Positions 3,482-63,122 are shown, counted from the first letter of the stretch. The stretch is 64,000 bases of DNA from an uncultured Armatimonadetes bacterium (GCA_963717145.1 OY970325.1:256001-320000); one strand, 5' to 3'. Program-made: numbers and translations. Notes: generated by a model not told the origin, from the letters alone.

Positions 3482-4553
3482 TGTCAAGTCCCACCACGTT
3501 GTGAACGGTAGTTCAGTAAGTCGGTAGGCTCTTTGATAAACAGATCTGGTCTTTGCGCGTACCAATCGCAGACCTTCTCATAGGGTGTCTTGCCACCGAT
3601 CGCGCTGTGCTGTCTCCTTAGATTGTAGATGGTCAGCCACTGGTGGAGTCCATCTATCAACTCCGGATATCCAGGATATCTGTGCATCTTGTACGTGCCC
3701 TCCTGGATCAGTCCGTTCATGCGTTCCACCAGACCGTTGGTCTTTGGTGTATACGGCCGGGTGAGCCTGTGTTCAATACCACAGGCTGAGCATACTTCAT
3801 CAAAGAAGTGAGGTCTCTTCGCCGGACTGCCCCAACGGCTCCAATTGGCCAGAGTGAACTCTCTACCGTTGTCTGTCAGGATCTTGTGGATCATGAACGG
3901 ATAGAACCACATGCACAGTCCAAGGAAGCCCACTGCGGATTCCTTGGTTAGGTTGTCGTACACCTGGAGGAAGGCTAGCCTTGTTGCTCTGTCTACCGCA
4001 ACGAAGCAATACTTCCTCTTGCCCCCGATCTTGGGCAGGTAGAAACAGTCTATGTGAAGGTATCCAGGCAGATACTCTTTGAACTTGCCTGGACTTTCTC
4101 TCTTTTCTTTTTGGTACTGGGGGAGTCTGCTCACCCCTTTTCTGCTCAGTAAGCGATGTATACTGGCGCGTTCTGCATTCGGCAGAACTGTGACTACTGC
4201 ACGCACCAGTGCATCGAGTGCTAGACCTTTGTCCCGGAGCGAGAGGATGATCTCCTCCTCTTCGGGGCTGAATGCATAATGGATCTTCCTGGGCCGACTG
4301 CTGCGGTCTTGCTGGTCACCCCGGGCCTTCCATTTGCAGACTGTTGCCGGCGATACATGGCAGATATCTGCGAGCTTTCTGCAGCTCTTGGGACTCTGCC
4401 TGAAAAACCGCCGTTGCTTCATATTGCTGGTTGCGTTAGAATGGATCTGCATGCGAGTGGTCTCCTTTTTTGGTTTGGCGATCATCAAAGAGACTACCGC
4501 ATGCACCTCCTTCTTTTCAACCCACGGTGTTCATAATGTCATGAGACTGGACA
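3482..4553 (-). mobile_element. IS481-family insertion sequence, 1072 bp, apparently intact
   Basis: TGT...ACA ends; 25-bp IRs (3482-3506, 4529-4553; 19/25 match); 6-bp direct repeat GTTAAT at 3476-3481 and 4554-4559; lower GC than flanks. Confidence 0.93.
3484..4452 (-). CDS. IS481-family DDE transposase (rve core)
   Basis: MQIHSNAT start after AAGGAG; HTH; HID, LTDNGREF and TPKTNGLVERMN catalytic motifs. Confidence 0.93.
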   Translation of the reverse strand: MQIHSNATSNMKQRRFFRQSPKSCRKLADICHVSPATVCKWKARGDQQDRSSRPRKIHYAFSPEEEEIILSLRDKGLALDALVRAVVTVLPNAERASIHRLLSRKGVSRLPQYQKEKRESPGKFKEYLPGYLHIDCFYLPKIGGKRKYCFVAVDRATRLAFLQVYDNLTKESAVGFLGLCMWFYPFMIHKILTDNGREFTLANWSRWGSPAKRPHFFDEVCSACGIEHRLTRPYTPKTNGLVERMNGLIQEGTYKMHRYPGYPELIDGLHQWLTIYNLRRQHSAIGGKTPYEKVCDWYAQRPDLFIKEPTDLLNYRSQRGGT

Positions 4554-4633
4554 GTTAATGGTTGATGGTTGATGGTGAATGGCGGAGAGCATGCCGCTCC
4601 GCCATAAACCATCAACCATCTCCCATGAACCAT
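4554..4633. repeat. Inverted heptamer array (ATGGTTG)n/(CAACCAT)n, interrupted by the IS; left remnant 3471-3481
   Basis: GTTAATGGTTGATGGTTGATGGTGAATGG...CCATAAACCATCAACCATCTCCCAT. Confidence 0.8.
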
Positions 4634-4653
4634 TCCTCAGGAGGCAGGATAGT

Positions 4654-8360: not shown

Positions 8361-9093
8361 AACGCTCGCAGTCATATCGCTCCTTGCCGGTCTGGGTGCC
8401 TCGGCCTCAGCCCAGGGGATCATGCCTAAGCTCAACATCGGCGTCGAGGCTGCCAAGGGCCCGCAGGATGTATCGGTTAGTCTACAGATTCTGCTGATTC
8501 TTACACTGCTGTCACTGGCGCCGGCGCTGTTGATCACGCTGACCTCATTCACGCGAATCGTCATCGTGCTCTCGTTCACTCGGGGCGCACTCGGCACTCA
8601 GCAGACGCCGCCGAACTCCGTGCTTATCGGACTGGCGCTCTTCCTCACGTTTTTCACGATGGCGCCGATCTGCAGTCAGATCAACCAAACCGCACTGCAG
8701 CCCTATGTGCACAAGGAGATCGCATTCGACCAGGCGCTCGACAGGGCGTCGCAGCCGGTCCGCGAGTTCATGTTCTCACAGGTTCGAGAGAAAGATCTTG
8801 CACTGTTCGTCGGGCTCTCGAAGATGGACCGCCCGACGTCCGAGGCCGACGTGCCGACATACGTGTTGATCCCATCGTTCCTGATCAGCGAACTGCGGAC
8901 GGCGTTCAGCATCGGCTTCCTGATCTTTATACCATTCCTGATAATTGACATGGTGATCGCGGTGACCCTGATGTCGATGGGCATGATGATGCTCCCGCCG
9001 GTCGTGATCTCGCTGCCGTTCAAGATTCTGCTGTTCGTGCTGGTTGACGGGTGGCATCTGATCGTGCAGTCTCTGGCCCTCAGTTTCCGGTAG
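8347..9093 (+). CDS. fliP: Flagellar export gate protein FliP
   Basis: [11 protein letters not shown]...[22 protein letters not shown]...LVDGW. Confidence 0.97.
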
Positions 9094-9556: not shown

Positions 9557-10339
9557 ATGGATTTGGCTTGGCTTGGGGCACAGAAACTCGAGGTCTTCAT
9601 CCTCGTGTTGGCACGGACCGCCGGTATCTTCACGGTCACGCCGATCTTCGGCGCGAATCAGGTGCCGCCACAGGTGCGAATCGCCGCCGCGGTCGGGATG
9701 GCGATCATCTTTGTACCATTGTGTCCGTCCGAAGTTGTACTCGCGGTGGATGTACTGCCGATGGCCCTGCTCGTGGCGAAGGAGGCGTTCGTCGGGCTGG
9801 TGATCGGCTTTGTGGTGACGCTGGTGTTCACGGTCTTCCAGATCGCGGGCGACTTTATCGACGTGCAAGCAGGCTTCAGTTTCGCTACTATGGTCGACCC
9901 GGTGAACGGCGCGCACACATCGATCGCGGCAAGGTTCCATCAGATACTGATCGGCCTGCTCTTCTTCGCGACGAATGCACATCACGTGGTGATCACCGGG
10001 CTGGCCGACAGCTTCAAGCTCGTGCCGGTCGGATCGATGTCCATGAACCCGCTTGTGGCAAGCGGTATGCTGGATATCTTCGCAACCCTGTTCGGAGTTG
10101 CACTGAGGATCGCGTCGCCGGTCGTGGCAGCGGTATTCCTCGCGGATGTGGCGCTGGCGATCATGTGCCGAGCCGTTCCGCAGATGAATGTCATCATCGC
10201 CGGCATGCCGTTGAAACTGGGCGTCGGCATGGTGGGGATGCTCGTGGCGATCCCCGTGCTGGTGACCTCCAGCCAGGGGATGTTTTCGGATATGTACGCG
10301 CAGATGGGCGGCATGCTCCATCTGCTGGTTGCACCGTAG
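9557..10339 (+). CDS. fliR: Flagellar export protein FliR
   Basis: Hydrophobic; FQIAGDFIDVQAGFSFATMVDP; RAVPQMNV. Confidence 0.96.
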   Translation: MDLAWLGAQKLEVFILVLARTAGIFTVTPIFGANQVPPQVRIAAAVGMAIIFVPLCPSEVVLAVDVLPMALLVAKEAFVGLVIGFVVTLVFTVFQIAGDFIDVQAGFSFATMVDPVNGAHTSIAARFHQILIGLLFFATNAHHVVITGLADSFKLVPVGSMSMNPLVASGMLDIFATLFGVALRIASPVVAAVFLADVALAIMCRAVPQMNVIIAGMPLKLGVGMVGMLVAIPVLVTSSQGMFSDMYAQMGGMLHLLVAP

Positions 10340-10495
10340 GGGAGGCCTTCAACGGCCTCCCGATCACCGTAGGGGCGATCCTTCCACGGTCGCCCGCTGG
10401 AGGCCGTTGAAGGCCTCCCCTACGGTGTCACTCGTTTGGCGTAGGGGCGATCCTTCCACGGTCGCCCGCTGGAGGCCGTTGAAGGCCTCCCCTAC
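10336..10495. repeat. Mosaic REP cluster (families A and B)
   Basis: A = GTAGGGGAGGCCTTCAACGGCCTCCC (10336; reversed at 10399-10423 and 10471-10495); B = GTAGGGGCGATCCTTCCACGGTCGCCC (10369, 10441). Confidence 0.9.
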
Positions 10496-11626: not shown

Positions 11627-13729
11627 GTGGCAGTGACAATCGCAAACGGAAAGCCATCGATCAGGCTGGAAGGCATCCTGAAGCACAGTGACATACTGGT
11701 CGCCGTCGCGGCGCTGGTGATCATCGGCATGATGGTCATCCCGTTGCCGTGCTGGCTTCTCGACATCCTGCTCACGGCCAACATCATGGTGGCGCTCGTC
11801 ATGCTTTTGGTCACCGTATATACGGTCCAGCCGCTGGAATTCTCTTCGTTCCCGTCGATGCTTCTGGTCGCGACTCTCTTCCGGCTCGCACTCAACATCG
11901 CCGCGACACGGCAGATTCTGCTCGACGCTCATGCAGGAGCGGTCATCACCGCGTTCGGATCGGTTGTCGTAGGCGGCAACTACGTCGTCGGCCTTGTAGT
12001 ATTCATCCTCCTGGTCATAATCCAGTTTGTCGTCGTTACCAACGGTACGGGCCGAGTCGCCGAGGTCGCCGCGAGGTTCACCCTCGACGCCATGCCGGGG
12101 AAGCAGATGGCCATCGACGCCGACCTGAACGCCGGCATCATCACTGAGGAGGAGGCAAAAGATCGGCGGAAGGCGGTCTCCCGTGAGGCCGACTTCTACG
12201 GAGCGATGGACGGCGCGAGCAAGTTCGTCAGGGGCGACGCGATCGCCGCCGTCATCATGATCGTCGTCAACATCATCGGTGGATTCCTCGTGGGCGTCGC
12301 TCAGCGGCACATGGAGTTCAACAGCGCCCTGCAGACGTACACCCTGCTGACCGTCGGTGAAGGCCTGGTCACTCAGGTGCCCGCGCTCCTGATCTCCGTG
12401 GCAGCCGGTCTGATGGTCACTAAGGCCGCATCGGACAACAGCCTCGGCCGAAATATGGCTTTCCAGATCTTCACTCAACCGAAGGCAATTGGCATCACCG
12501 CGGGTATCTGCGGTCTGCTCGCCCTCGTGCCCGGCATCCCCAAGATCCCGTTCATCCTTGCCGCCCTCGGTGGCGGGTTGCTCGCGAACATGCTCAAGCA
12601 GCAGCCGGCCGATCAAGTGGAGGAGCAGACGGTCGAAGCGCCGAGGCCGCCCGAGACGATGACCGACCTGCTGCTGGTCGATCCGATCGAGGTCGAACTC
12701 GGCTACGGGCTGATCCCGCTCGCCGACCCCAAGCAGGGGGGCGACCTGCTCGAGCGAATCACGGCCGTCAGACGCCAGACCGCCACGGAACTCGGGCTGC
12801 TCGTTCCGGCGATCCGCGTCCGGGACAACATGCAGCTCAAGCCGAACTCCTACAGCGTGAAACTGCGCGGGATCGAGATCGCCGGCGGTGAGGTCTATCC
12901 TGGCCAGATACTCGCGATGGACCCCGGTACTGCGACATCGGAACTCAAGGGGATACAGACGACCGAGCCTGCATTCGGCCTCCCCGCGACATGGATATCG
13001 GAGGCGCAGAAGCCCGAGGCCGAGATGAACGGCTTTACAGTCGTGGACCCGCTCACAGTCTTGATCACACATTTGGCGGAGATGATCCGCAAGCACGCGG
13101 ACGAGATTCTCACTCGACAGGACACTCAGACGCTGATCGACAGCCTCAAGGCGCAGTCGCCTGCGGTTGTCGAGGAGTTGATCCCGAACCTGCTCTCGGT
13201 CGGCGAGGTCCAGAAGGTCCTGCAGAACCTGCTGTCCGAGCGCGTATCGATCCGCGACCTGGCGGTCATCTTCGAGGGGCTTTCAGACGCGGCCCGGCTG
13301 ACCCGCGACACGGACTTGCTCACGGATTACGCCCGCCAGTACCTGAGCAGGCAGATCACGAAGCAGTACCTCTGCCCGGACAGCATCGTGCGGGTCTTCA
13401 CCCTCGATCCGATGGTCGAGCAGGCCATCGCAGACGGGATCAGGCACACGGAATCGGGCGCGCAACTCGTGCTCGAGCCGGGGGTGGCACAGGAATTGCT
13501 GGAGGAGACTCGGGAGCAGGCCGAAATGATGGCCTCAATGGGCTACATGCCGGTCGCCATCTGCTCGCCAAGAGTACGCATACACTACCGCCGTCTGGCT
13601 GAGCGCATGGCGCCCGCGCTGGCGGTGCTCTCGTTCAACGAACTAGCATCGGGCGTGAAGCTCGAGACTTTGGGAATGGTGACACTGGCACATGAGGATA
13701 GTGCGAATCAAAGCCTGCAATATGCATGA
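11627..13729 (+). CDS. flhA: Flagellar export ATPase platform FlhA
   Basis: RVAEVAARFTLDAMPGKQMAIDADLNAG; FYGAMDGASKFVRGDA. Confidence 0.98.
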   Translation: MAVTIANGKPSIRLEGILKHSDILVAVAALVIIGMMVIPLPCWLLDILLTANIMVALVMLLVTVYTVQPLEFSSFPSMLLVATLFRLALNIAATRQILLDAHAGAVITAFGSVVVGGNYVVGLVVFILLVIIQFVVVTNGTGRVAEVAARFTLDAMPGKQMAIDADLNAGIITEEEAKDRRKAVSREADFYGAMDGASKFVRGDAIAAVIMIVVNIIGGFLVGVAQRHMEFNSALQTYTLLTVGEGLVTQVPALLISVAAGLMVTKAASDNSLGRNMAFQIFTQPKAIGITAGICGLLALVPGIPKIPFILAALGGGLLANMLKQQPADQVEEQTVEAPRPPETMTDLLLVDPIEVELGYGLIPLADPKQGGDLLERITAVRRQTATELGLLVPAIRVRDNMQLKPNSYSVKLRGIEIAGGEVYPGQILAMDPGTATSELKGIQTTEPAFGLPATWISEAQKPEAEMNGFTVVDPLTVLITHLAEMIRKHADEILTRQDTQTLIDSLKAQSPAVVEELIPNLLSVGEVQKVLQNLLSERVSIRDLAVIFEGLSDAARLTRDTDLLTDYARQYLSRQITKQYLCPDSIVRVFTLDPMVEQAIADGIRHTESGAQLVLEPGVAQELLEETREQAEMMASMGYMPVAICSPRVRIHYRRLAERMAPALAVLSFNELASGVKLETLGMVTLAHEDSANQSLQYA

Positions 13730-14798
13730 GGCCCTGGCGGAAGCCAGGCGTCAACTCGGTGAGAGTGCGACCGTCCTGCACACCAGGCAGTTGGAGACAT
13801 CCGGCTGCCTCGGTCTCGTTCGCCGGCGCAAGGTCGAACTCCTTGCCGCTGTCGATTCACCCCCGGATCGCGCAGCCGTAGGGGAGGCCTTCAACGGCCT
13901 CCCGTCCGCCGGGAGGCCGTTGAAGGCCTCCCCTACGGCTGCGCGATCCGGGGGTGGTGATTCCGATATGGAGCAGATGGTCAGGGAGGTCTCAGAGCTT
14001 CGGCGTGTCGTGGCAAACATGGATTCACGGTTTTCGAGCGCCAACCAGCCAGTGGAGACGTCGCCGATCGTCGAGCGGCTTACACGAAGCGGAGTCCCCC
14101 ATGCCGTCGCTGAAGTGATCGACTCCGAGGGCAAGGGCGATCCGGCGAAGATCACCGAACTGATTGGACGGCGCATCAAATGCTCCGGGCCACTGAGGGT
14201 GGAGAAGACCCAGTCGCGAGTCGCACTGATCGGCCCGACCGGGGTGGGGAAAACCACCACAGTCGCCAAGCTCGCAGCGGAGTATACGCTGGTCCGGAAG
14301 AAGAAGGTCGCACTGCTCACGCTCGACACATATCGCATCGGGGCGGTCGAACAACTCGCCACATACGCGCGGCTTCTCGGCATCCCGCTTGAGGTCGCTC
14401 TCAGCCCCGAGGATGTCGCGAATCTGATCGCATCCCACGCGGACAAGGATCTGATACTCATCGATACTATCGGTCGGAGCCAACGCAGCCGCGAGCAGGT
14501 CGCCGAACTGGCCCGATTCCTGCGCGCTGCGGACCCGACGGAAGTGCATCTCGCGGTCTCAGCATCGGCCAACCCCGTCGCTCAGACCGAAGCCGTAAGC
14601 AGTTTTGGAATCATGTCCCCGAGCAGAATCGTGCTCACCAAGCTGGACGAGTGTCCGCAACCGGGATGCATCCTGGGGCTCTCGTCATCGAGCCTTCTGC
14701 CGATCTCATACGTGACCTACGGCCAGGACGTGCCGGACGACATTGCGGTGGCCCAGTCCGAGTCGCTCGCGAAGCTCGTCTGGGAGGGCGCGCCATGA
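13692..14798 (+). CDS. flhF: SRP-type GTPase FlhF carrying an in-frame palindrome insertion
   Basis: GPTGVGKTTT, DTYRIGA, DTIGRS, TKLDE, GQDVPDDI. Confidence 0.95.
   Translation: MRIVRIKACNMHEALAEARRQLGESATVLHTRQLETSGCLGLVRRRKVELLAAVDSPPDRAAVGEAFNGLPSAGRPLKASPTAARSGGGDSDMEQMVREVSELRRVVANMDSRFSSANQPVETSPIVERLTRSGVPHAVAEVIDSEGKGDPAKITELIGRRIKCSGPLRVEKTQSRVALIGPTGVGKTTTVAKLAAEYTLVRKKKVALLTLDTYRIGAVEQLATYARLLGIPLEVALSPEDVANLIASHADKDLILIDTIGRSQRSREQVAELARFLRAADPTEVHLAVSASANPVAQTEAVSSFGIMSPSRIVLTKLDECPQPGCILGLSSSSLLPISYVTYGQDVPDDIAVAQSESLAKLVWEGAP
13858..13956. repeat. Intragenic 47-bp perfect inverted repeat (REP-A doublet plus 20-bp arms) in flhF
   Basis: 13858-13904 is the exact reverse complement of 13910-13956. 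Confidence 0.95.
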
Positions 14799-16665: not shown

Positions 16666-16745
16666 GTAGGGGAGGCCTTCAACGGCCTCCCGACTGGGGG
16701 GAATCGTATCGACTAGAGCGGGAGGCCGTTGAAGGCCTCCCCTAC
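16666..16745. repeat. REP-A inverted doublet
   Basis: GTAGGGGAGGCCTTCAACGGCCTCCC...GGGAGGCCGTTGAAGGCCTCCCCTAC. Confidence 0.92.
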
Positions 16746-17751: not shown

Positions 17752-17754
17752 GGG

Positions 17755-17850
17755 AATGGTTGATGGTTGATGGTTAATGGTCGATGGGGAATGGTTGATG
17801 AGGGATGGAAGCAGCTCCGGTCTGCCATTAACCATAAGCCATCAACCATT
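17755..17850. repeat. Inverted (ATGGTTG)n heptamer array
   Basis: ATGGTTGATGGTTGATGGTTAATGGTCGATGG...CCATTAACCATAAGCCATCAACCATT. Confidence 0.82.
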
Positions 17851-17863
17851 CCGGAGAGAGTCG

Positions 17864-18151
17864 ATGGATGTACGAGTGACATTGCCGGCGGATCCGGCCG
17901 GTAGATTCGAACGAGAGAATGCAGGAGCGGCCAAACACAAGCCGCACGTGTTCGCGCCGGATGGTATTGCTGCCGATGTGGCATCGGAGGCTGACAGCTA
18001 TGTCGGTCGCCCGAGAGCCAAGGACCCGAGGGAGGAGCGAAAGGGCAAGCCGAAGCATCCTCCTGAGGCTGGTCCGATCATTGCCGATGCTCCACCCGAT
18101 CTCGGTTCCGATGAGTCGGGCGAGCACCATGTCCTTGATGTGAGAGTGTAG
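17864..18151 (+). CDS. Hypothetical protein (95 aa)
   Basis: GGAG RBS; charged, ends HHVLDVRV. Confidence 0.55.
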   Translation: MDVRVTLPADPAGRFERENAGAAKHKPHVFAPDGIAADVASEADSYVGRPRAKDPREERKGKPKHPPEAGPIIADAPPDLGSDESGEHHVLDVRV

Positions 18152-18154
18152 AAG

Positions 18155-18247
18155 GGGAGGGCGAGGCTCCGTCCGAGCCGGATGCTTCGGTAGCGCCGCT
18201 CTGTTCTGCTGCCGAAGCATCCGGCTCGGACGGAGCCTCGCCCTCCC
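18155..18247. repeat. Nested palindrome: GGGAGGGCGAGGCTCC outer element around GATGCTTCGGTAGC (family F) inner element
   Basis: Near-perfect 93-bp hairpin. Confidence 0.85.
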
Positions 18248-18263
18248 ATCGAAAGGTTGAGAA

Positions 18264-24694: not shown

Positions 24695-25609
24695 CTACTG
24701 CAGAAAATCTGCAAGTGTTATATCAAGCAGCCTTCCTGCAGTCGATATTGCCGCCTGGTATACGTTCTCTCTTACTCGGAGCGCCACCAGGGCCTCCGCC
24801 ATATCCGCATCCTCATTGCGCGAAAGCAGTTCACTCGCGTTGATCTTCGAATCTGCGAGCGCATCGCTGTTCAGCTCGAGTCGTCTCAACGTCTCACCGA
24901 CTTGCGATCTGATGGATATCGCGTTGCCGAGATTCGCGTCGATATCGGTGATCTCAGCGGACATTGCAGCGACGTCACCCGCCAGGACAGCGTCTCTAAG
25001 ATCCCGTACCATCGTGAAAACGTCCGGCGTCCCGGGCGCAGATGCGCTCCCAATGTTGAACACCGTATCTCCGGTGACCCCGGCCTGGACGAGCGATCCC
25101 GGGCCGACCCGGATGTTCAGCCGGTTGCCGTCACCCTGGTAAAGATAAGGGGGCGATCCGGCGACATTCTCTATTATCGGTTGGGTATTGCTCAGACTAC
25201 CAGAAAAAATATATTTGCCCATGTGCAGGGTGTTTCCGGTGTTTGCGAGAGTCTCCCCGATCTTCTCTATCTGGGTAGCCAGGTTGGCCCTTGCAGCCTC
25301 TGTCACTGCAGGACTGGCGGCCGATAGGGCGAGCGTCCTCAACTGCTGAATCGAGCCGACGACCGAGTCGAGAGCGCTGCTGGTAACAGACAATTGGCTC
25401 ACGGCCACGTCTGTGTTCCGGTTGTACTGCTCGATCGAGGAGAGCGCCGACCGCAGGCTGAGAGACTTGCCCGTCCCGATCGGATCGTCCGATGGCGTGG
25501 CGATCCGCTTGCCGGTGGTCGCCATGTTCTGCGCCCGGAGCAACTGATCGGAACTGGACATCAAATTCGTTCGTATCCTTTCGGAGAGCATGGAAGTTGT
25601 GACTCTCAT
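24695..25609 (-). CDS. flgL: Hook-associated protein 3
   Basis: TGKRIATPSDDP; YIFSG; EDADMAEA. Confidence 0.95.
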   Translation of the reverse strand: MRVTTSMLSERIRTNLMSSSDQLLRAQNMATTGKRIATPSDDPIGTGKSLSLRSALSSIEQYNRNTDVAVSQLSVTSSALDSVVGSIQQLRTLALSAASPAVTEAARANLATQIEKIGETLANTGNTLHMGKYIFSGSLSNTQPIIENVAGSPPYLYQGDGNRLNIRVGPGSLVQAGVTGDTVFNIGSASAPGTPDVFTMVRDLRDAVLAGDVAAMSAEITDIDANLGNAISIRSQVGETLRRLELNSDALADSKINASELLSRNEDADMAEALVALRVRENVYQAAISTAGRLLDITLADFLQ

Positions 25610-25613
25610 CCAT

Positions 25614-26999
25614 CTACCTCCCGGTCCCCATGCGGTTGACGACCGTATCGATCATCTCATCGATGACCGAGACAACGCGGGCCGCAGCATTGTAGGCCTG
25701 CTGGAACTTGACCAGGTTGATCATCTCTTCGTCGATCGACACGCCGGCCAGCGATTCGCGCTGGGTCTCCAGGTATTGCAGGGACACGGTGTTGACCTCA
25801 TTCTGAGTGGTCACCTCGCGCGAATTCGAACCCATATGCACTACCAGGTTGTTGTAGGCCACACCGACGGGCTGACTGTCGATCAGGGCTTCATCCCTGA
25901 CCCCCGTGATGGCCATCGCGAGCTGGTTGTCGCCCGGTCTACCGGTCGTCGAAGTGGCAACCGTCGAAGGCACGGCGACCAGTGCAGGATCTACACCTAT
26001 GTTGGATGCGTCAGCGCCCGGAATGAAGAACGGGCCGGTAGGGTTGCCGTTCAGGTCGACTCCAGTCGAGTGCAACTCGTTGACCCGGTTGACCAGCGTG
26101 GAAGCGATCGTGTTCAGAGAGTCTATGTAGCCGCTGACCGTCACGCTGCGTACCTTCATGAGCCCTTCGATCTCGCCGCCTTCGGGTTCGAAAGTCGATC
26201 CGTCGCCGGTCCACTTGAGTTCACTCCAGCCGTCCGCTCCTGTCGAGACCGCCAGCTCGGTGACATGCTCTCCCTGCACCAGGACTTTGCCGCTGATGCT
26301 GACGATGCAATCAGCGCCTCCACTGCCGAAAGTCTGTATCCGCGCCATGCTCGACAGCTCATCGATGAGGATATCTCGCCGGTCCAGCAGATCATTTGGC
26401 GCGACGACGCCGTTCTCGGAACGGACCAACTCTCTGTTGATGTCCGCAATCTGATGGGCCAGGTCATTGATGCGCGAGGCATCGTTCCGGATCTCCTTGT
26501 CAGCCTGAACCTGAACCTCGTGCAGATTGGCGTTCAGCGTCCGGAACCTGTCCGACAGGGCAACGCCTGCCTCGACGACACCGATGCGGGCGGATATGTT
26601 GTCGGGATTCGATGAGAGTTCATCCCATGCGTTCCAGAACTTGTCGAGCGCCGTCGACAGACCCGCTCCTCCGGGTTCGGCGAAGACCGACTCCACCTGC
26701 TTGAGGCTGTCGCTTTGTGCGCTGTACGAGCCGAGGAACTGGTTCATCTCTCGTATCTGACCGTCGATGTGGCTGCTCTGCAAGCGCCGGACTTCATGGA
26801 TAGTGACCCCGGTGCCGAGCTGCGGGATGCCCTGGCCGGTCGACGTTCCGCCCGATGTTGTTGTGCCCGGCAGGAAGACCGCCTCCTGGCGATGGTACCC
26901 TTTGGTGCCGGCGTTAGCGATGTTGTTGCCCGTGACGTTAAGGGCATACTGGTTCGCACGCAGGGCGCTTATTGCGATGTCGAGTCCAAGGAATGACAC
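25614..26999 (-). CDS. flgK: Hook-associated protein 1
   Basis: NNIANAGTKGYHRQ; NDLLDRRD; GVSIDEEMINL. Confidence 0.96.
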   Translation of the reverse strand: MSFLGLDIAISALRANQYALNVTGNNIANAGTKGYHRQEAVFLPGTTTSGGTSTGQGIPQLGTGVTIHEVRRLQSSHIDGQIREMNQFLGSYSAQSDSLKQVESVFAEPGGAGLSTALDKFWNAWDELSSNPDNISARIGVVEAGVALSDRFRTLNANLHEVQVQADKEIRNDASRINDLAHQIADINRELVRSENGVVAPNDLLDRRDILIDELSSMARIQTFGSGGADCIVSISGKVLVQGEHVTELAVSTGADGWSELKWTGDGSTFEPEGGEIEGLMKVRSVTVSGYIDSLNTIASTLVNRVNELHSTGVDLNGNPTGPFFIPGADASNIGVDPALVAVPSTVATSTTGRPGDNQLAMAITGVRDEALIDSQPVGVAYNNLVVHMGSNSREVTTQNEVNTVSLQYLETQRESLAGVSIDEEMINLVKFQQAYNAAARVVSVIDEMIDTVVNRMGTGR

Positions 27000-27012
27000 T
27001 GTGGACCTCCGA

Positions 27013-27534
27013 CTAAACCTTTCTGTCCAGGAGCAGGGCAGCGCCGCCTGGATCCGCCGCCGGATCGTAGGTCTGCTGCTCGCTCACAAGCTTGGATATG
27101 ATGCCGACGGAGAACTGGACGTACTCCATCATGGTCTTGAGCAATTGCGTATTGCCTGCCACCAGAGCCTGAAGAACGACCGCCAGGGCTCTGGTCTCCC
27201 GGTTGATCCCGGCGTATTGCGCCTCGAACTCGGACGCTGATGCTTCGGTAGGGGAGGCCTTCAGCGGCCTCCCGGCCGGGAGGCCGTTGAAGGCCTCCCC
27301 TACGGGACCATCCGACTCCGCGAGCATCCCGAGCAGCGACTCCTCGCGCTTCTCGACCTTCGCCAGATCGATCAGCAGCGGGTCGTGCTTCCTCAGGTTC
27401 TCCTGCAGGTCAGCATGTCGCCGCTCCAGGAGTATGGCGCGTTGTTCCTCGGCCAGTGAGATCAGCTCCTGCAAACGCTGAAGCCTGAACCGTGCGGCCG
27501 TTATCAACTCGTTTCTGATGGTAGTAGCGTCCAT
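27013..27534 (-). CDS. flgN: Export chaperone FlgN carrying an in-frame palindrome insertion
   Basis: Helical protein between flgM and flgK, ends LLDRKV. Confidence 0.8.
   Translation of the reverse strand: MDATTIRNELITAARFRLQRLQELISLAEEQRAILLERRHADLQENLRKHDPLLIDLAKVEKREESLLGMLAESDGPVGEAFNGLPAGRPLKASPTEASASEFEAQYAGINRETRALAVVLQALVAGNTQLLKTMMEYVQFSVGIISKLVSEQQTYDPAADPGGAALLLDRKV
27248..27303. repeat. Intragenic REP-A doublet in flgN
   Basis: GTAGGGGAGGCCTTCAGCGGCCTCCCGGCCGGGAGGCCGTTGAAGGCCTCCCCTAC. Confidence 0.93.
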
Positions 27535-27542
27535 GGATACAC

Positions 27543-27839
27543 CTAGTTGCCGAATCTGCCGTCTGCGGCGCTCTTGAACATGCTCTGAGCCAGTTGGCTC
27601 TCGTTGACTTCGTAGTCGCCGGCAGAGACCTTCTGCCTGATGCCGTCGACTATGTCGTTTCTGATATCCGGTAGCGATGCCATCGCCTGTTTTATCTTCT
27701 GCATTTCCGTCGCCTGTCTGGATATGGTAAGTCTGTCCGCCCCGCGGGCGGCATCAACGCCGGGCAACGATTGCATCCCATACACCTTGTGCATGTGAAG
27801 CTCCATGACCCTGTTTATCTGAGTGCTGCTGATATGCAT
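27543..27839 (-). CDS. flgM: Anti-sigma-28 factor FlgM
   Basis: DRLTISRQA...PDIRNDIVDGIRQKVSAGDYEV. Confidence 0.9.
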   Translation of the reverse strand: MHISSTQINRVMELHMHKVYGMQSLPGVDAARGADRLTISRQATEMQKIKQAMASLPDIRNDIVDGIRQKVSAGDYEVNESQLAQSMFKSAADGRFGN

Positions 27840-27878
27840 GACTGACACCCTTTTTCGATTTCGTGGCTACCGAGTTAA

Positions 27879-27906
27879 TCCTCGGCACTTTCCACCGGGA
27901 CTTTAG
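27879..27906 (-). promoter_or_regulatory. Sigma-28 promoter of flgM
   Basis: CTAAA-N15-GCCGAGGA. Confidence 0.65.
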
Positions 27907-28193
27907 CGCTTTTTCAGCGCCGCCAGTTGGGCGTAGATCGTATCGCCAAGCCCGATCGCGCCGCTCTCCGACATCTGCGTGGCATACTGCTCATCGAGCA
28001 TGCCCTGGAATATCTCTTCCTTGTCCTTGGATCCAAAGAGATCGCTCTTCGGGATCGATGCGCGCATCTTGGACAGCATCTGCTGAACCAACAGCGACTC
28101 GAAGTCCCGGCATGCCTTCCTGAGCTTCACGTCCTCTATGTCAGGCTTTGTCTGTGCCGCAGGACCAGCCGCCTGCACGTTCTCGATTCTCAT
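27903..28193 (-). CDS. flgJ: FlgJ, rod-binding domain only
   Basis: LRKACRDFESLLVQQMLSKMR...GMLDEQYA...GLGDTIYAQL; no muramidase domain. Confidence 0.88.
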   Translation of the reverse strand: MRIENVQAAGPAAQTKPDIEDVKLRKACRDFESLLVQQMLSKMRASIPKSDLFGSKDKEEIFQGMLDEQYATQMSESGAIGLGDTIYAQLAALKKR

Positions 28194-28210
28194 GGTTCCA
28201 ATCTCCCAAC

Positions 28211-28317
28211 GTAGTGGCCGCGCCTCTGTGCCGGCCATCTGTCTCCAAACCGGTAGCGGCCGCGCCTCTGTGCCGGCCATCCCCCGTCGCTGGCCGGCAC
28301 GGAGGCACGGCCACTAC
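28211..28317. repeat. REP family D cluster (3 copies)
   Basis: GTAG(T/C)GGCCGCGCCTCTGTGCCGGCCA at 28211 and 28253; reversed variant at 28291-28317. Confidence 0.85.
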
Positions 28318-28320
28318 GTG

Positions 28321-29415
28321 TTAGAGTATCTCCAACTCCGCGTGGAGGGCGCCCGCTTCCTTGAGTGCCTGCAGGATCGCAACTACATCCCTCGGCGTGA
28401 CCTTCAGCTCATTCATCGCCCTGACCAACTCCGCCAACGTCGCGCCCGGCTCGAGGTCGATCATCCGGTGACCGTCCTCGGTAGCCTGGACCGTCGTGTT
28501 CTCGACGACTTCGGTCTTGCCCGTCTTGGAGAGCGGGTTGGGCTGAGATACCTGCGTCTCGGTGGCGACCTCGACGCTCAGACTGCCATGTGCCACGGCC
28601 ACGGGTGACAGCCTCACGTCGCTGCCGATCACCACCGTGCCCGTCCGCTCGTTCACGATCACCTTGGCGATCGCGCTCTCCATGACAGACAGCTCCCCGA
28701 CCTCAGCGATGAGCCCGATGACATCCTGTGACCCGGCCTTGACCTCTATGGTGGCCGCATCGAGGGCACGGGCGTTTCCCGGGCCGAGCTTGTCGTTAAC
28801 CGCCTGAGCGACTCGGATGGCGGTCGTGAATTCCGGGTTGTTCAGCAGGATATGTATGCCACCTCCATCGGTGAGGGCAGTCGGGACCGCCTGTTCGATG
28901 ATCGCTCCGTTCGGTATCCGGCCGACTGTGGTGTGGTTCTTCGTAACCTTCGTATCCGCCCCGCCCGCGGTGAATCCGCCGGTCGATATGCTGCCCTGTG
29001 CGACCGCGTAGACCTGACCGTTCGCCGCCTGAAGCGGTGTCTGGAGCAGCGTGCCTCCCTGGAGACTGCGGCAGTCACCAAGTGACGAGGCATTCACGTC
29101 GATCTTCGCGCCGGGTCGAACAAACGGGGGGAGATCGGCGGTCACGATCACAGCGGCCACGTTCTTTACCTTGAGTCGGTCAGCCGGCACGGTGATCCCG
29201 AACTTCTGCAGCATGTTCGCCACCGACTGCGCGGTAAAGAGCGCCTGCTGGGTGTCGCCGGTTCCGTCGAGGCCGATCACGAGTCCGTAGCCGAACAACT
29301 GGTTGCTCCTCGCGCCCTCGATCTTGGCGACGTTCTTGATCTTCACGTTCTGGTCCGCCCATGCCATCGTGCTGATGGCCAGCAGGGCGATTATCATGTA
29401 TCTCGAGTAACGCAT
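28321..29415 (-). CDS. flgI: Flagellar P-ring protein
   Basis: NQLFGYGLVIGLDGTGD; KNVAAV; SLQGGTLL. Confidence 0.97.
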   Translation of the reverse strand: MRYSRYMIIALLAISTMAWADQNVKIKNVAKIEGARSNQLFGYGLVIGLDGTGDTQQALFTAQSVANMLQKFGITVPADRLKVKNVAAVIVTADLPPFVRPGAKIDVNASSLGDCRSLQGGTLLQTPLQAANGQVYAVAQGSISTGGFTAGGADTKVTKNHTTVGRIPNGAIIEQAVPTALTDGGGIHILLNNPEFTTAIRVAQAVNDKLGPGNARALDAATIEVKAGSQDVIGLIAEVGELSVMESAIAKVIVNERTGTVVIGSDVRLSPVAVAHGSLSVEVATETQVSQPNPLSKTGKTEVVENTTVQATEDGHRMIDLEPGATLAELVRAMNELKVTPRDVVAILQALKEAGALHAELEIL

Positions 29416-32671: not shown

Positions 32672-32726
32672 CGGTTTCTCTCTTCCACGTAAGGATTCTC
32701 CGGGCACAGGCGATCGTAACACTCCA

Positions 32727-32825
32727 GATGCTTCGGTAGCAGAGGCCTGGCGGCGCTGCCGAAGCATGGTATGATGACCGTGCGATGCTTCGGCAGCGCC
32801 GCCAGGCCTCTGCTACCGAAGCATC
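32727..32825. repeat. Family F palindromic doublet
   Basis: GATGCTTCGGTAGCAGAGGCCTGGCGGCGCTGCCGAAGCAT and its reverse complement. Confidence 0.85.
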
Positions 32826-32886
32826 GAGTGGAGGCACCGACAGCGACGAGCACCTCGCCACCGTCGGGCAAATGGGAATCTCAACC

Positions 32887-34016: not shown

Positions 34017-34038
34017 CCTTTGGAGTGCGGAAGCGAAG

Positions 34039-34151
34039 CCTGTATCCGTAGGGGCGATCCTTCAACGGTCGCCCGATTCTTCGGCAGCGACACTGTCTTC
34101 TGCTACCGAACTATCGGGCGACCGTTGAAGGATCGCCCCTACGGATACAGG
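34039..34151. repeat. REP-B doublet with 9-bp outer arms and inner family-F remnant
   Basis: CCTGTATCC-GTAGGGGCGATCC...GGATCGCCCCTAC-GGATACAGG. Confidence 0.88.
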
Positions 34152-34165
34152 ACTGGACAACCATC

Positions 34166-35716
34166 ATGAGTTCCAACGTCAAACAAGTCAGCAAGGGCGC
34201 GGATGTCGACGAGCGGCTCGCCGCGCTGCTCTCGAACGCGGGAGCGGTACGCGCGGTTGCCTCGTCGATCGAGGGCACGCTCGGTCCAAAGGGCCTCAAC
34301 TGCATGCTCGTCGATAAGTTCGGCGATGTCACCATCACGAACGACGGCAGTGCAATCCTGAGCAAGGTCGATGCCAACCATCCCGCCGCCCGCATGCTCA
34401 TCCGGATCGCCAGGGCACAGGACGAGGAGGTCGGCGACGGCACCACCACGGCCGCCGTGCTCGCCAGTGCGCTCCTCGCGGAGGGAGTCAGCCAAGTCGC
34501 GCGTGGAGTGCCGGTCACGAAGGTGATCGAGGGCATCTCGATCGGTATCCGCAAGGCGCTCGAGGTCGTCGAGTCGGCCGCGAGACCGATCTCCGGCTGG
34601 GACGACCCGCTTCTCTGGCAGGCGGCATATATCGCCGGTCGGGAGAGCAATGACATCGCGGACCTGGTCGTCCGAGCCGCGCAACTGGTCGGCGAGGAGA
34701 AGCTGAAGGATCCCGGATTCCGGCTTTCCGATTGTGTGGTCGCCCGTGAAGGAGCGCAGAACGAGGTCTTCACCGGTCTCATCATCGAGAAGGAGCGCAT
34801 GAACCGCCAGATGCCGCGCTCGATCGAAAATGTTCGGGTACTCGTCGTGGACGATGCGCTCGAGCCGGAACAGATCGAGGACGACGCGCTCGGCACGGAA
34901 TCGGGATTTGCGCGATACGTCCAGCTTCAGAACGAGTTTCGCGACGACCTGCGCAAGCTCATTGACCTCAACATCGGCATGGTGGTCGTCCACAAGGCGG
35001 TTGCCGATGCGGCGGAGGATGTCCTTACTGACGAGGGGGTGCTCGTCATCCGCCGAGCATCCTCGAAAGATATAGCCCGAATCGTCGAGCACACCGGAGC
35101 GCGGACCATCAAGCGCACGGGGCTCAAGAAGCCGTCCGAGGAGCTGGGAAAGTTTGTCGGAAAATGCGAGCGGGTATACGAGGATGAACGTCTCGAACAC
35201 ACCCGCATCATCGGTGGCGCAGGGAAACCTGCGGCGACGATACTGGTCGGCGCGGCCACCCGTGAGGTGAAAGAGGAGCGGGAGCGCATCGCCGAAGACG
35301 CGGCTGCGTCGGTGCAGGCCGTCGTCGTCGGCGGGATCGTCCCGGGCGGTGGCGCCATCGAGATCGCGGCCTCCAGGGAGGTCGCGGCGATGAGGGATGG
35401 CGTGAAGGGCATGACTTCCTACGGCGTGGACGCCGTCGCCGAAGCCCTGAAGCGCCCGCTCGGTCAGATCGTGACCAACGCCGGGTTCAACCCACTCGAG
35501 AAGGTCGAGGATGTGGTTGCCGCTCAAGCCGTGGACGGGAAGAACAGCCTGGCGGTGAACTGCGATACCGGCGAGATAGCCGATATGATGGAGATCGGTG
35601 TCGTCGATCCGGCAAAGGTCAAGCTCTATGCGCTCAAGGCCGCCGCCGAGATCGCGGAAGCGATCCTGCGAATCAACACGATCATCAAGTGCAGAGACGG
35701 GCAGTCTAACGAGTAA
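34166..35716 (+). CDS. Thermosome-like (group III) chaperonin
   Basis: TLGPKG, ITNDG, VGDGTTT, VPGGGAIE, ILRIN; no GGM tail; no groES nearby. Confidence 0.9.
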   Translation: MSSNVKQVSKGADVDERLAALLSNAGAVRAVASSIEGTLGPKGLNCMLVDKFGDVTITNDGSAILSKVDANHPAARMLIRIARAQDEEVGDGTTTAAVLASALLAEGVSQVARGVPVTKVIEGISIGIRKALEVVESAARPISGWDDPLLWQAAYIAGRESNDIADLVVRAAQLVGEEKLKDPGFRLSDCVVAREGAQNEVFTGLIIEKERMNRQMPRSIENVRVLVVDDALEPEQIEDDALGTESGFARYVQLQNEFRDDLRKLIDLNIGMVVVHKAVADAAEDVLTDEGVLVIRRASSKDIARIVEHTGARTIKRTGLKKPSEELGKFVGKCERVYEDERLEHTRIIGGAGKPAATILVGAATREVKEERERIAEDAAASVQAVVVGGIVPGGGAIEIAASREVAAMRDGVKGMTSYGVDAVAEALKRPLGQIVTNAGFNPLEKVEDVVAAQAVDGKNSLAVNCDTGEIADMMEIGVVDPAKVKLYALKAAAEIAEAILRINTIIKCRDGQSNE

Positions 35717-35834
35717 CAAGTAGTCCGTAGGGGCGATCCTTCTACGGTCGCCCGGTTGGGGTGATAGACTTGGAAGGATTGTCCCGACGAACCGGGCGAC
35801 CGTAGAAGGATCGCCCCTACGGACTACTTGTTAC
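35713..35834. repeat. REP-B doublet with 14-bp outer arms
   Basis: GTAACAAGTAGTCC-GTAG...CTAC-GGACTACTTGTTAC. Confidence 0.9.
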
Positions 35835-35845
35835 CTGAGGTCACC

Positions 35846-36502: not shown

Positions 36503-36505
36503 CGG

Positions 36506-36590
36506 AATGGTTGATGGCAGATCCATCCCCCATCCGCCTCCCCAATGAGCCATGAACCATCAACCATCAACCATCCAGCCATCCTGCCAT
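36506..36590. repeat. Degenerate inverted ATGGTTG/CAACCAT heptamer array
   Basis: GAATGGTTGATGG...CCATGAACCATCAACCATCAACCATCC. Confidence 0.7.
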
Positions 36591-37957: not shown

Positions 37958-38035
37958 GAAGGGAGCGGGCCTCCCCGATGCATCGGTAGCAGAGCAGAGC
38001 GGCGCTGCCGATGCATCGGGGAGGCCCGCTCCTTC
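37958..38035. repeat. Palindrome between convergent genes containing a family F core
   Basis: GGAGCGGGCCTCCCCGATGCATCGG...CCGATGCATCGGGGAGGCCCGCTCC. Confidence 0.8.
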
Positions 38036-40763: not shown

Positions 40764-40841
40764 GTAGGGGCGATCCTTCCACGGTCGCCCGTGCGTGCTG
40801 ACATGACCGCCCGCCGGGAGGCCGTTGAAGGCCTCCCCTAC
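40764..40841. repeat. Hybrid REP-B/REP-A doublet
   Basis: Family B forward at 40764, family A reversed ending 40841. Confidence 0.88.
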
Positions 40842-55835: not shown

Positions 55836-58800
55836 CTAGTGGAAGGTTATCGACAGGTTGTCTATGCCGGTGTGCAGCCAGTATCCCTTCCACGGCTGCA
55901 GCAGCGTTGTGTCCGCATAGTCGTCGTCGAGGCCCAGGGTCATGATGTTGCTGCCATTGTTGTCCCACCAGTAGCAGATGGTGTTCAGCCAACCAAGGTT
56001 CCTCGCCGTGGAGATCGGTCGTGTATACAGACCTTGGCTCACCGTAACCATGTTCCAGTCCTTGGGTCCCATGAACGGGCAGCCGATGATGTACCACCCG
56101 GCTCTGGGAAGGGCAATGGTACGCTCGGTCTGGGGCGCTACGTCGGCCGGTTCGTAGCTGATGGTCGAGGGCACCGGTGTCCAGAGCCAGTAGCCGTCGT
56201 CTATGCTTACATCGCCGAAATCCGACGGACTGTACTGCGAATAGATGATCAGGTTTTGGGTGGCGCCATCCCGGCGATACAGAGTGCCATCGATATCGAT
56301 CCCCTGGAAGACAACGAGAGGATTGGGGTCCGCGGGCTGGGCCGGAAGGCTAAGCAGGTTCCATCCTGCGGTAACCATGCCGGGCGGAGACGTCAACATG
56401 CCCGACTCGATCGCCGCATCCTTTCGGAGCACGTCGCCCGCCGAGAGTTCGAGTCCACCGAACGCCTTAGGCCCGTAGCCCTCCTTGCTGATCGCCACTC
56501 TGTAGATCCCCGGGGGCAGGTCAAGGAACGCGTACGTGCCTGTGGCATCGGTGCGAGTCGTTCTTTCGACCGGCCCTCTGATCGTTACGGACGCTTTGTA
56601 TATCCAATTGCGGTAGATCGGATGGTTCGGCTCAGCTACATCCGTGATCGTCCCGAAGATGATTCCTGTTGTCGGTTGATCCTTCCATGGCATGTCGGGG
56701 ATCGGCGCCGGCTGGCTGAACAGGTCCGCCGTGACGGCATCGAAGAAGGCCCCCGCCGGTTGACCATCCTTGTTGGTCACGGCGTAGCTGTACGCACACA
56801 GTCCGTCGCACCCGGAGTTGCGCGAGTAGGTCATCTGATCGATACTCGCAGAGATCGAGTTCATGTAGATGCCCTGTCCATCGACTGCAAGCCTTCCGGA
56901 TGAGCCTGCCGCTCTGGGCAGCCAGTTCGCCCATTCGCGATAGCTCGCCTTCTGGACTGTGTTGTACTCGCGCTTGTAGTTCATGAGGATGTTGATGTCA
57001 ATGATATGCTGATTCATCCAGCCACGGGCATCCTGGAAGACGCCGGCATACTGGGGCGTGCGTTCGTACTCCGTATTGGGATCCGCGCCGTCCCAGCCAA
57101 CGGTATCGACCGACATCTTGATCCGCGGGTTCAGGTACATGGCCTCGACGTAGCACTTCGTCAGCAGATCGGTGACCTGCTGCCTTCGATAATCGCACCA
57201 GACCTGCCAGTTCGCAGAGGGGTTGCTGCCATCCTCGCCCACAGGCGAGGTCGGGGGATAGTAGCCGTGCTCGTACTGGAAGCGCCACCTGACGTACTGG
57301 TTGTAGCCCCAGTTCGTGCCGGGATAGCGCACATAGTCGAAGTTGATGCCGTCCAGCGTCTGGTACTGGCCGACGATGTCCTTCACGATGTTGGCGATAT
57401 AATCCTGAACGCCCGGAACACCGGGGTCGATGTTCAGGCTGTTGCCTTCCTGATAGCCGCCTCCTGAGGTCCTCATCGACCAGTCCTCGGCGGATTCCGG
57501 CCCGTGTTCAGCCCAGACGTGTCCCGCCTCAGCATCCGGATAAGTGAGAAACCATGCCCGGTAGGTCACGATCCACGCATGGACCTCGATCCCCTTGGCG
57601 TGTGCCTTGTCGATTAGATCCTGGAGCGGGTCGTATGCCCCCTCAGGCGGCGTTATATTCGTGCCCCATGGCTCGTATTGGGAAATGTAGTAGGCATCCC
57701 CCGCCTTCCTGACCTCCACCACGATGGCGTTGTAGTTGGCGGCGGAGACCTTATTCACGAACGCAGTCGTCTCTTCAGCGCTGAGGAAGCCGTTGTGCCA
57801 AGTGTCAGCCCAGATCATGCGGTATTCCGGGGCGGTGGACGAGGTGGCGAATGTGTGATCCTCGGAAACCGTCGTATTCCCGGCGCCGTCCGTGGACTTG
57901 ACCCGGAAGTGATAGAGCGTATCGGTCAGCAGACCTTCGAGGGTCACGCTGTGCAGGGTGACGAGGTTTACGTCAAGGGGCGATTCGGAGCCGTAGTCTG
58001 TCGTGATCCCATACTCCACCTGGGAGTTGGCCGGCTCGTTCGTTTTCCACCTCACGATGGCCGAGTCCATGCGCCTGGACACGGATATCTCGGAGATGAC
58101 GGGCGGCGTCTCATCAGGGCCTCCGGTGGTGAAGTAGAATGGCCCCACGTTGATCTCATTCGACTCGGCGTCCTTGGATACCACACAGTAGGTGTAGGTC
58201 GTGTCTGGATCGAGTCCCGTTATCACGACTCTGTGGTCCGTTACGAGTTCTGAGTCGAGTGGGGTCTGCGAGGTGTAGCCCCCGATGCCGTATCCGACCA
58301 GCGATGTTGCAGGCTCATCTGTGACCCAGGTGATGACGACCGAGTTGGATCCCGGGTCGGCGCTGACCTCTGATATCACCGGTGGAGTAACATCGGCCGA
58401 CTTCGTCGTGAACCAATATACTCCCTTGGTGACGCAGTTTCGGCGCGCGTCACAAGACACAACCGCGTAGTAGTATTTCGTATCCGGCAGCAGGTTCGTC
58501 AGAGTGACGGAGTGATCCGTTACCAGCGTTATGTCTTCGACCGTCTCGCCGGTCGGAGGATTGGATGTTCCGTAGCGCACCTGAGATGTTGCCGGCTCGT
58601 CGGTCACCCAGGTGATGACGCAGGTACGCGATCCGGGATCAGCCTTCACCGTGTACGTCTTGGGTGGAGCGATATCGAGCGCCTTGGTGGTGAACGTGTG
58701 ATCGCTGGATACAGAGGTGTTCCCCGAGTCGTCGGTCGAGATCACGCGATAGTGGTAATCTGTCTCCGGCAGCAGGTTCGGAATGAGCACGCTGTGGTCC

Positions 58801-60026: not shown

Positions 60027-60139
60027 TCGTGTACCTCCTCGCTCTCGATCGAAGGAACGGACGTGATGAATCGAGTGGCCCGCATCGCCGGGCGGTGGCG
60101 GCGCGGGACCACTCGATGGAAAGTCACGCAATCATCACC

Positions 60140-62873: not shown

Positions 62874-63007
62874 AATGCGATTCCTCCACTCCCTTGATAT
62901 TGAAGCTCCACTCTCAAAGCGTATCAACGAGAGGTCAAGAGCGTAATGACCTCCCTGTGCGGGGTTAACCATCAACAATACAGACGCATGCCCATCATTG
63001 AGCATAC

Positions 63008-63024
63008 TGCAAGATTGGTGCCAG
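63008..63024 (-). promoter_or_regulatory. Sigma-54 promoter
   Basis: CTGGCAC-CAATC-TTGCA on the minus strand, ~135 nt upstream of 62873. Confidence 0.72.
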
Positions 63025-63122
63025 TTACGCCGTTTTGCCCGCTATCAGGTAATCTCATAAGGTTACCCGACCTGCTGTCCCCTGCAGTAAAGACGTGCGA
63101 GCGTCACATCCGTTTCCTGTTC

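Follow-up and report, generated by a model that had tools for sequence, protein, structure and literature searches.

Whether a strongly palindromic REP can enter a flagellar gene and leave it open, and where such an insert comes from, is the question raised by flgN in a 64,000-nt stretch of DNA from an uncultured Armatimonadetes bacterium (the window). An earlier note, made from the sequence alone, had described an in-frame REP insertion in flgN that reads VGEAFNGLPAGRPLKASPT at residues 78–96 of the protein. Our analysis recovered the same coordinates and the same peptide in an intact ORF. In the reading that we hold with good confidence, the insert is a lineage-specific, in-frame insertion of a REPIN-like doublet of one repeat family (family A) between the older arms of another (family F), and it is tolerated as near-neutral selfish DNA. 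We infer that the insert is neutral and that FlgN is made and working. The coordinates of the features are collected in Table 1.

Table 1. Genes and repeat features discussed in the text, in window coordinates.
Feature	Position	Strand	Setting	Details
flgN coding sequence	27013..27534	minus		173 aa, intact ORF
flgM	27543..27848	minus	adjoins flgN upstream, same direction	Pfam PF04316, E 4.9e-15
flgK	25614..26999	minus		Pfam FlgK_D1, E 9.4e-62
flgL	24695-25609	minus	next in flgM-flgN-flgK-flgL order	
Family A REP doublet	27248..27303	not applicable	flgN	56 nt; tail-to-tail, GTAG heads outward
19 codons read as VGEAFNGLPAGRPLKASPT	27303 down to 27247	minus	flgN	FlgN residues 78-96
Family F arm GATGCTTCGGTAG, exact	27239..27251	plus	flgN	GTAG common to F arm and family A head
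Degenerate partner F arm	27300..27312	minus	flgN	10/13 vs left arm; reads DGPV
flhF coding sequence	13692..14798	plus		368 aa; NCBIfam TIGR03499
99-nt palindrome	13858..13956		flhF	contains family A doublet 13878-13936; outer arms of 20 nt, locus-specific
Family A + B arm cluster	10336..10495		between fliR and flhB	fliR stop TAG within GTAG head
Doublet with longer spacer, family A	16666..16745		intergenic	between the end of the PilZ gene (stop at 16662) and fliA
Hybrid doublet, family B arm + family A arm	40764..40841		intergenic	
Reference family F hairpin	18181..18221		intergenic	DASAAEQSGATEAS in one frame
Three family D REP units	28221..28318		upstream of likely flgJ-like start	one frame reads SGRASVPASD

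The flgN product matched the Pfam FlgN family (PF05130) with an E value of 2.8e-10 and 41.2 bits, above the cut-off of 30.5, and its residues 8–160 aligned on profile positions 4–143 of 147. No model matched in an NCBIfam scan of the same protein. The gene order flgM-flgN-flgK-flgL, as for the FlgN family, was present with all four genes on the minus strand, and flgK begins at a GTG codon, preceded by GGAGG, 13 nt past the flgN stop. Judged from the window ORFs, the flagellar cluster around flgN was intact. An ORF for an rve-type integrase (an IS element; 3487–4506, minus strand) lies between flgE and motA within this cluster.

The doublet itself is a near-perfect palindrome. An arm that starts with GTAGGGG (27248–27273) is followed by the spacer GGCC (27274–27277) and the inverted arm (27278–27303), with 27/28 complementarity between the arms. 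All family A arms share this plan, namely the GTAGGGG head and then a 7-bp stem (GGAGGCC / GGCCTCC) with a 6-nt loop. Compared with the consensus, a single base differs in flgN, on the plus-strand arm (CAGCGG, not CAACGG), which changes TTG to CTG on the coding strand (Leu to Leu) and leaves the hairpin with one pair fewer. RNA folding of 106 nt around the doublet gave −73 kcal/mol (z −6.6), and none of 200 shuffles was equally stable. Ribosomes translating flgN would have to pass a hairpin of about 26 bp. Two of the three frames through the element are open and the third contains stop codons; the second open frame reads RGGLQRPPGRE..EGLPY. Since the doublet is a palindrome, the identical peptide is obtained from either orientation. 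Scans of the window returned no Rfam family at the gathering score and no tRNA. An intrinsic terminator was considered as another identity for the hairpin and rejected: there is no T-run, the hairpin is followed on the coding strand by CGAAGCATCAGCG, and a terminator scan of 26800–28400 did not include it.

The other in-frame copy in the window lies in flhF. TIGR03499 matched FlhF with 203.8 bits (cut-off 174.15), placing residues 1–261 on profile positions 1–286 of 286; because the model aligns from the first residue, the repeat at residues 63–82 (VGEAFNGLPSAGRPLKASPT) is inside the coding sequence. The peptide is read in the same frame as in FlgN, its loop is one residue longer (PSAG vs PAG), and the doublet spacer in flhF is longer than that in flgN. 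Both genes are open, and family models match across the insert. A public FlhF model (P0022) begins at the second ATG (13722, 358 aa); the family model aligns from the first ATG (13692), which gives 368 aa and an overlap of 38 nt with the end of flhA.

Set beside the flhF copy, most of what the earlier note had said of the flgN insertion was borne out, with some corrections. The two insertions are independent, as it proposed, for they differ in gene, loop and flanks, and the FlgN loop is indeed unlike that of FlhF. The shared reading frame is real and carries little weight, as only two frames are open and the palindrome gives the same peptide either way. The one substitution that it counted is one DNA base; it is synonymous, so that outside the loop the peptide is identical to that of FlhF. 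The claim that the flgN doublet has no outer arms is not quite accurate: the 17 nt flanking both GTAG heads are complementary at 11/17 positions (binomial p about 0.003), and F arms are found on both sides, the exact 13-mer on the left and a 10/13 version on the right. The junction with a family F end was correctly recognized, as GATGCTTCGGTAG and its inverse gave seven matches in the window at ≤1 mismatch (four exact) against 0.07 expected. The left F arm reads ...PTEAS on the coding strand, and TEAS is found also in FlgN orthologues without family A. Taken as a whole, the inverted repeat at flgN (I1) has 45-nt arms (27231–27275 / 27276–27320) that are 84% complementary. The nesting of the doublet in an older translated repeat common to orthologues, described below, was absent from the earlier note.

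Repeats of these kinds are abundant in the window. The 23-nt arm has 10 copies at ≤3 mismatches (seven exact, three with one mismatch), with zero copies in each of 100 shuffles. GTAGGGG heads number 19 and belong to at least three stem families (A, B and C); family D is also GTAG-headed. All seven loci with A/B doublets are heads-out, five being intergenic and two lying in frame within flhF and flgN. The intergenic doublets in the window frequently adjoin a stop codon; the stop of the PilZ gene, for instance, is 3 nt ahead of a doublet. The stop codons of fliR (TAG, 10337–10339) and fliP (TAG, 9091–9093) are supplied by, or overlap, REP GTAG heads.

Several further observations concern repeats elsewhere in the window. 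The first residues of a flgJ-like rod-binding ORF (27903–28280) are two MAGTEARPL units from family D REPs, and a later ATG at 28193 is preceded by GGGAG; translation probably starts downstream of the REPs, and the longer ORF is likely an annotation trap. Family F hairpins occur within longer near-perfect palindromes at 18150–18248 (about 95 nt) and 37960–38025 (about 65 nt), whose outer layers differ. Upstream of groEL, the spacer of a family B doublet (34048–34142) contains an F-like hairpin with one frame reading PDSSAATLSSATELS, which resembles the first unit of the linker in one FlgN orthologue (P0003, below), and nesting of the repeat families occurs in both orders. Repeats of 7-nt units (GGTTGAT / ATCAACC type) occupy intergenic sites at 4555–4637, 17753–17853 and 36504–36585, one of which adjoins the IS element. 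Three tandem paralogous genes for GHL10 / carboxypeptidase-regulatory-domain proteins (55839–63980, minus strand) share DNA blocks of 60–78% identity, and the largest paralogue has 282-nt internal repeats.

The placement of these REPs bears on what might keep the flgN hairpin. The arms are nearly unmutated (no change in FlhF, one synonymous change in FlgN), which fits a recent insertion and equally fits conservation for an RNA or DNA role. The hairpin could be retained for a function in the flgM-flgN-flgK-flgL transcript, as a shield against 3′ exonucleases or as a site of ribosome pausing, with the peptide as a by-product; paused ribosomes could tune the ratio of FlgM/FlgN to FlgK/FlgL. The high stability of the stem would suit such a role, and most other REPs of the cluster lie directly past stops in same-direction runs (fliP, fliR, the PilZ gene, groEL), the position for which Di Nocera et al. 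(PMC3733652) make a case for a role of REPs as RNA elements. The sole change in the FlgN copy is compatible with this as well, being synonymous, so that constraint at the protein level and at the RNA level are not separable there. Nevertheless, the element was missing from 10/10 orthologues, the single substitution breaks rather than preserves a base pair, and the element occurs also in unrelated genes without shared regulation. We therefore regard an RNA role as improbable, and near-neutral insertion as the better account.

To place the insertion among relatives, FlgN was searched against 5.8 billion protein clusters, and 10 relatives were obtained among 332 candidates (61–77% identical, 151–189 aa). 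The 10 orthologues and the window FlgN begin and end at the same residues, and the alignment has 83 invariant columns on either side of a single variable linker. Bounded by LLGML on one side and by the (D/E)F(E/Q) motif on the other, this linker ranges from 8 to 46 residues. The family A peptide was absent from all 10 orthologues in the alignment, with both flanks conserved. Without its 19 codons, the window FlgN would have 154 aa, the same length as P0007 and P0010.

The linkers of P0002, P0004–6 and P0021 read TDASAAA(PG/LR/TG)SATEAS, matching in-frame translations of F copies in the window, of which one frame gives DASAAEQSGATEAS (18181 copy) and DASAAPLCSATDAS (37977 copy). The P0003 linker consists of DSSAAALRSATEES, SGRASVPASD and DASVAAPGSATEAS, in which a family D unit stands between an F-like unit and another F unit. 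As a control, all of the window except flgN was translated in six frames and scanned for the longest exact peptide matches of the linkers. For the F-type linkers the longest match was SATEAS, located on F copies at 32726–32743 and 32809–32826, and SGRASVPASD of P0003 was 10/10 identical to a family D frame at 28286–28315. In this translation, no match of ≥5 residues was obtained for the linkers of P0007 and P0010, which are short and free of REPs, and the linkers of P0009 and P0011 had one 5-mer match each, at non-repeat sites. The P0008 linker (…TERR…RYRSIA…) shares 5-mers with another F frame, and two of its five five-residue matches fall on repeats; its link to family F is weak. One orthologue appears, from its peptide, to read F in a shifted frame.

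A tree of 143 non-linker columns (12 rows, midpoint root) placed P0003 as the sister of the window FlgN (support 97/93) and P0009 with P0011 across the midpoint root from them (95/91), and left the remaining rows as a polytomy. These sequences do not prove that F was gained just once, as the repeat-free P0007 shares the polytomy with F-bearing orthologues. Relatives thus differ in presence and absence: A in the window FlgN only, and F and D, at the peptide level, at the same site in some orthologues. The F and D elements of the orthologues and the boundaries of the insertions are inferred from peptides. Read in this way, the FlgN linker is a recurrent in-frame REP nest, because closer orthologues carry F there and the sister carries D.

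In the protein, the insert falls in a predicted loop, and the added residues appear harmless. The AlphaFold model of the window FlgN (alignment of 11 sequences; mean pLDDT 82.2, pTM 0.66) has helices at 3–36, 40–48, 50–74, 95–153 and 162–172. Residues 75–94 are non-helical and 77–94 have pLDDT below 50, so the insert is modelled, with low confidence, as a loop that joins two long predicted helices. The model of the REP-free P0010 (mean pLDDT 72.7) has helices at 43–73 and 80–134, connected by a 6-residue turn. By these models, FlgN forms a long helical hairpin whose turn the insert would extend from about 6 residues to about 20, with the helices kept in place. A Foldseek search with the FlgN model gave no match at E≤0.001; the P. 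aeruginosa FlgN structure 2fup ranked 21st (E 0.63, TM 0.40/0.52) among generic helical bundles. A PDB sequence search with FlgN gave nothing below E 0.09.

The earlier note had further suggested that many proteins of this genome carry the peptide. FlgN residues 68–107, covering one of the two open frames, were used as the query against the 5.8 billion protein clusters. Among proteins of 95–303 aa there was no carrier beyond FlgN itself (1/6 candidates passed), and among those of 304–2000 aa, 4/76 candidates passed at E≤10 (P0012, P0013, P0014 and P0015). P0012, P0013 and P0015 are listed from the same 5,366,867-nt contig as the window FlgN, and P0014 from a 17,218-nt contig. P0012 is a GH38 mannosidase of 1148 aa with three head and two tail peptides at two sites, one between the middle domain and the C domain (612–651) and one inside the C domain (809–836), where the match has about 28 extra residues. 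P0013 (468 aa) and P0015 (699 aa) are HdrA/GltD-like, with the peptide at residues 230–248 and 145–163, respectively; P0014 (390 aa) is a Gfo/Idh/MocA protein with the peptide at 209–227, and its cluster mate P0020 carries the peptide too. In these carriers, the peptides lie either at the edges of domains or inside a domain match, as additional residues. Counting FlhF, the tally comes to no fewer than five gene models, with the peptide inserted at six or seven sites. This count is a lower bound, since the search missed the 358-aa FlhF model in the same collection, and therefore copies with other spacers. Other coding copies do exist, as the earlier note expected: FlhF, P0012, P0013 and P0015 on the same contig and P0014 on another. 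They amount to a handful, and "many" is not shown.

At the DNA level, a collection of genome contigs scanned with the 20-nt arm core gave three single matches. One (L001) was rejected as a family A copy, being a terminator-like chance hairpin. The others (L002, 1993–2024; L003, 1997–2028), which are unrelated MAG records from other sources, have one unit each, identical to family A over 27–28 nt including the GTAG head. No family B, D or F motif was found within 2 kb of these two units.

In the same NCBIfam models, P0013 aligns to positions 29–336 of 566 and P0015 to the part that follows, 355–538, so that the two may be pieces of one HdrA/GltD-like fusion gene, split or frameshifted; the Arg-rich tail of P0015 looks out of frame. 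This pair would count for a reading in which the insertion disables flgN and turns it into a pseudogene. For flgN we consider this very improbable, given that its ORF is full-length, that it shares its ends and the 83 invariant columns, both helices included, with the orthologues, and that the insert sits at a loop. The flagellar cluster is also intact, with flgK following closely behind its own ribosome-binding site.

Another reading of the carriers would be that the peptide is a selected binding or targeting motif and the palindrome is secondary. In its favour, four proteins share the 19 residues without a difference, and one of these proteins comes from another contig. Yet the same DNA occurs at intergenic sites, palindromy is a property of DNA, the carriers are functionally unrelated, and the peptide has pLDDT below 50. 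Moreover, the 40-residue piece searched against 1.84 billion cluster representatives gave five matches at E≤0.001, one being the query and none marking another family; the other four, long repetitive Ig-like or fibronectin-like proteins, were rejected as unrelated, their scores being sums of weak stretches. A selected motif is hardly credible on this evidence, and the insert is most likely tolerated, near-neutral selfish DNA.

How the doublet came to lie in flgN is a separate matter. It may have been formed in place, by snap-back or template-switch copying of a resident REP or by a core swap between GTAG heads. Three doublets have locus-specific outer complementary arms (20 nt at flhF, 13858–13956; 12 nt at the 34048 locus, 34036–34154; 17 nt at the 35727 locus, 35710–35837), as an inverted flank duplication would leave. 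Hybrid A+B doublets occur at 40764–40841 and in the 10336 cluster, and in flgN the A core lies exactly at the expected position of the F core, with GTAG shared. However, arms unique to a locus would fit insertion into pre-existing hairpins as well as in situ fold-back duplication, and the outer arms could thus be the hairpins that were targeted. The compact 19-residue form is identical in FlgN, P0013, P0015 and P0014, with different flanks, and movement of a ready-made unit is therefore favoured. Formation in place is in our judgement unlikely, though it keeps some weight beside the insertion of a mobile doublet.

A course of events can be proposed for the mobile doublet. Family F would have entered the FlgN linker in the ancestor of the inner clade. 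Family A would then have entered the inter-helix turn, or replaced the F core there, in the window lineage only, and family D and a second F would have been added in the sister lineage (P0003). As the net change was a multiple of three in a frame without stops, the gene would have stayed open and gained a Gly/Pro-rich loop of 19 residues, probably disordered. The doublet may have been mobilized by a tyrosine transposase of the RAYT type or through template switching driven by hairpins, and it may have targeted a pre-existing hairpin. Among the 66 window ORFs, Pfam revealed no RAYT / Y1 transposase gene, the sole transposase-like match being the rve integrase at 3487–4506.

In-frame REP insertion is already known from other bacteria (described 2000–2013), and flgN adds an example. 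Di Nocera et al. (2013, BMC Genomics 14:522, PMC3733652) described, in the passages cited here, intragenic REPs of the GTAG and CGTC types from several species. Over half of these intragenic inserts were dimers or groups, encoding 20–30 aa; some single ORFs had multiple (double) inserts, Xanthomonas recB genes carried different REPs at about the same site, and placement in flexible linkers or loops was suggested. With its GTAG head, short G+C-rich stem-loop and inverted dimer, the flgN element is like the GTAG REP dimers of that paper, a likeness set by these shared features. It differs from the cases in those passages in its flagellar hosts and in the nesting of the doublet between arms of another family that is translated in orthologues. 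Four supplementary files of the paper make no mention of flagellar genes, FlgN, FlhF or the peptide.

REPINs, as introduced by Bertels and Rainey (2011, PMC3116915), are two inverted REPs with a spacer that form one long hairpin, and RAYT tyrosine transposases are given as mobilizing REP doublets (PMC3116915, PMC3733652). By that account, doublets outnumber singlets, several families occur per genome, and the elements, defined from extragenic sequence, have spacings of 71 and 110 bp. The flgN doublet likewise consists of inverted REPs folding as one hairpin, in a window with several families, but is 56 nt long with a 4-nt spacer and lies within a coding frame. The RPEs of Rickettsia (Ogata et al. 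2000, via PMC3733652 and PMC3184786) are, according to these two sources, palindromes of about 105–146 bp with a CGTC end, inserted in frame in still-functional genes and adding a peptide segment to many unrelated proteins. The flgN element resembles them in being in frame in an open gene and in giving its peptide to unrelated proteins. Its identification as an RPE was rejected, as it has GTAG rather than CGTC and 56 nt rather than 105–146 bp, although it works like one; its host genome is of a free-living type (5.4 Mb), whereas RPEs belong to an obligate intracellular lineage. BRE repeats are cited as lying inside about nine Bordetella protein genes (Hot et al. 2011, cited in Delihas 2011, PMC3184786); they too are small repeats internal to several protein genes of one genome, but of another repeat class and in another taxon.

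The most interesting aspect of flgN is that one loop has been used repeatedly, in nested fashion, by three repeat families. It is a concrete illustration that a protein loop can grow through palindromic selfish DNA while the gene stays intact, and the tip of the FlgN helical hairpin tolerates from 6 to more than 40 residues. REP peptides are also a trap for annotation and homology search, as the same 19-mer turns up in unrelated proteins and the starts chosen by gene callers may be displaced near REPs. Existing hairpins seem to matter, because the flgN doublet lies between F arms and other doublets have outer arms of 12–20 nt. With three families at one codon-level site, the question whether REPs aim for hairpins already present becomes tractable here. 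We put forward, as a plausible but tentative idea, that a REP hairpin fixed in a tolerant loop serves as a landing pad for further REPs, so that the linker can evolve mainly by palindrome turnover; the arrival of F, then of A in one lineage and of D and a second F in its sister, at the same inter-helix turn, would follow this pattern. If true, the FlgN linker would be a REP nest that is both inherited and translated, and it would preserve a natural record of REP insertion targeted to hairpins inside a gene.
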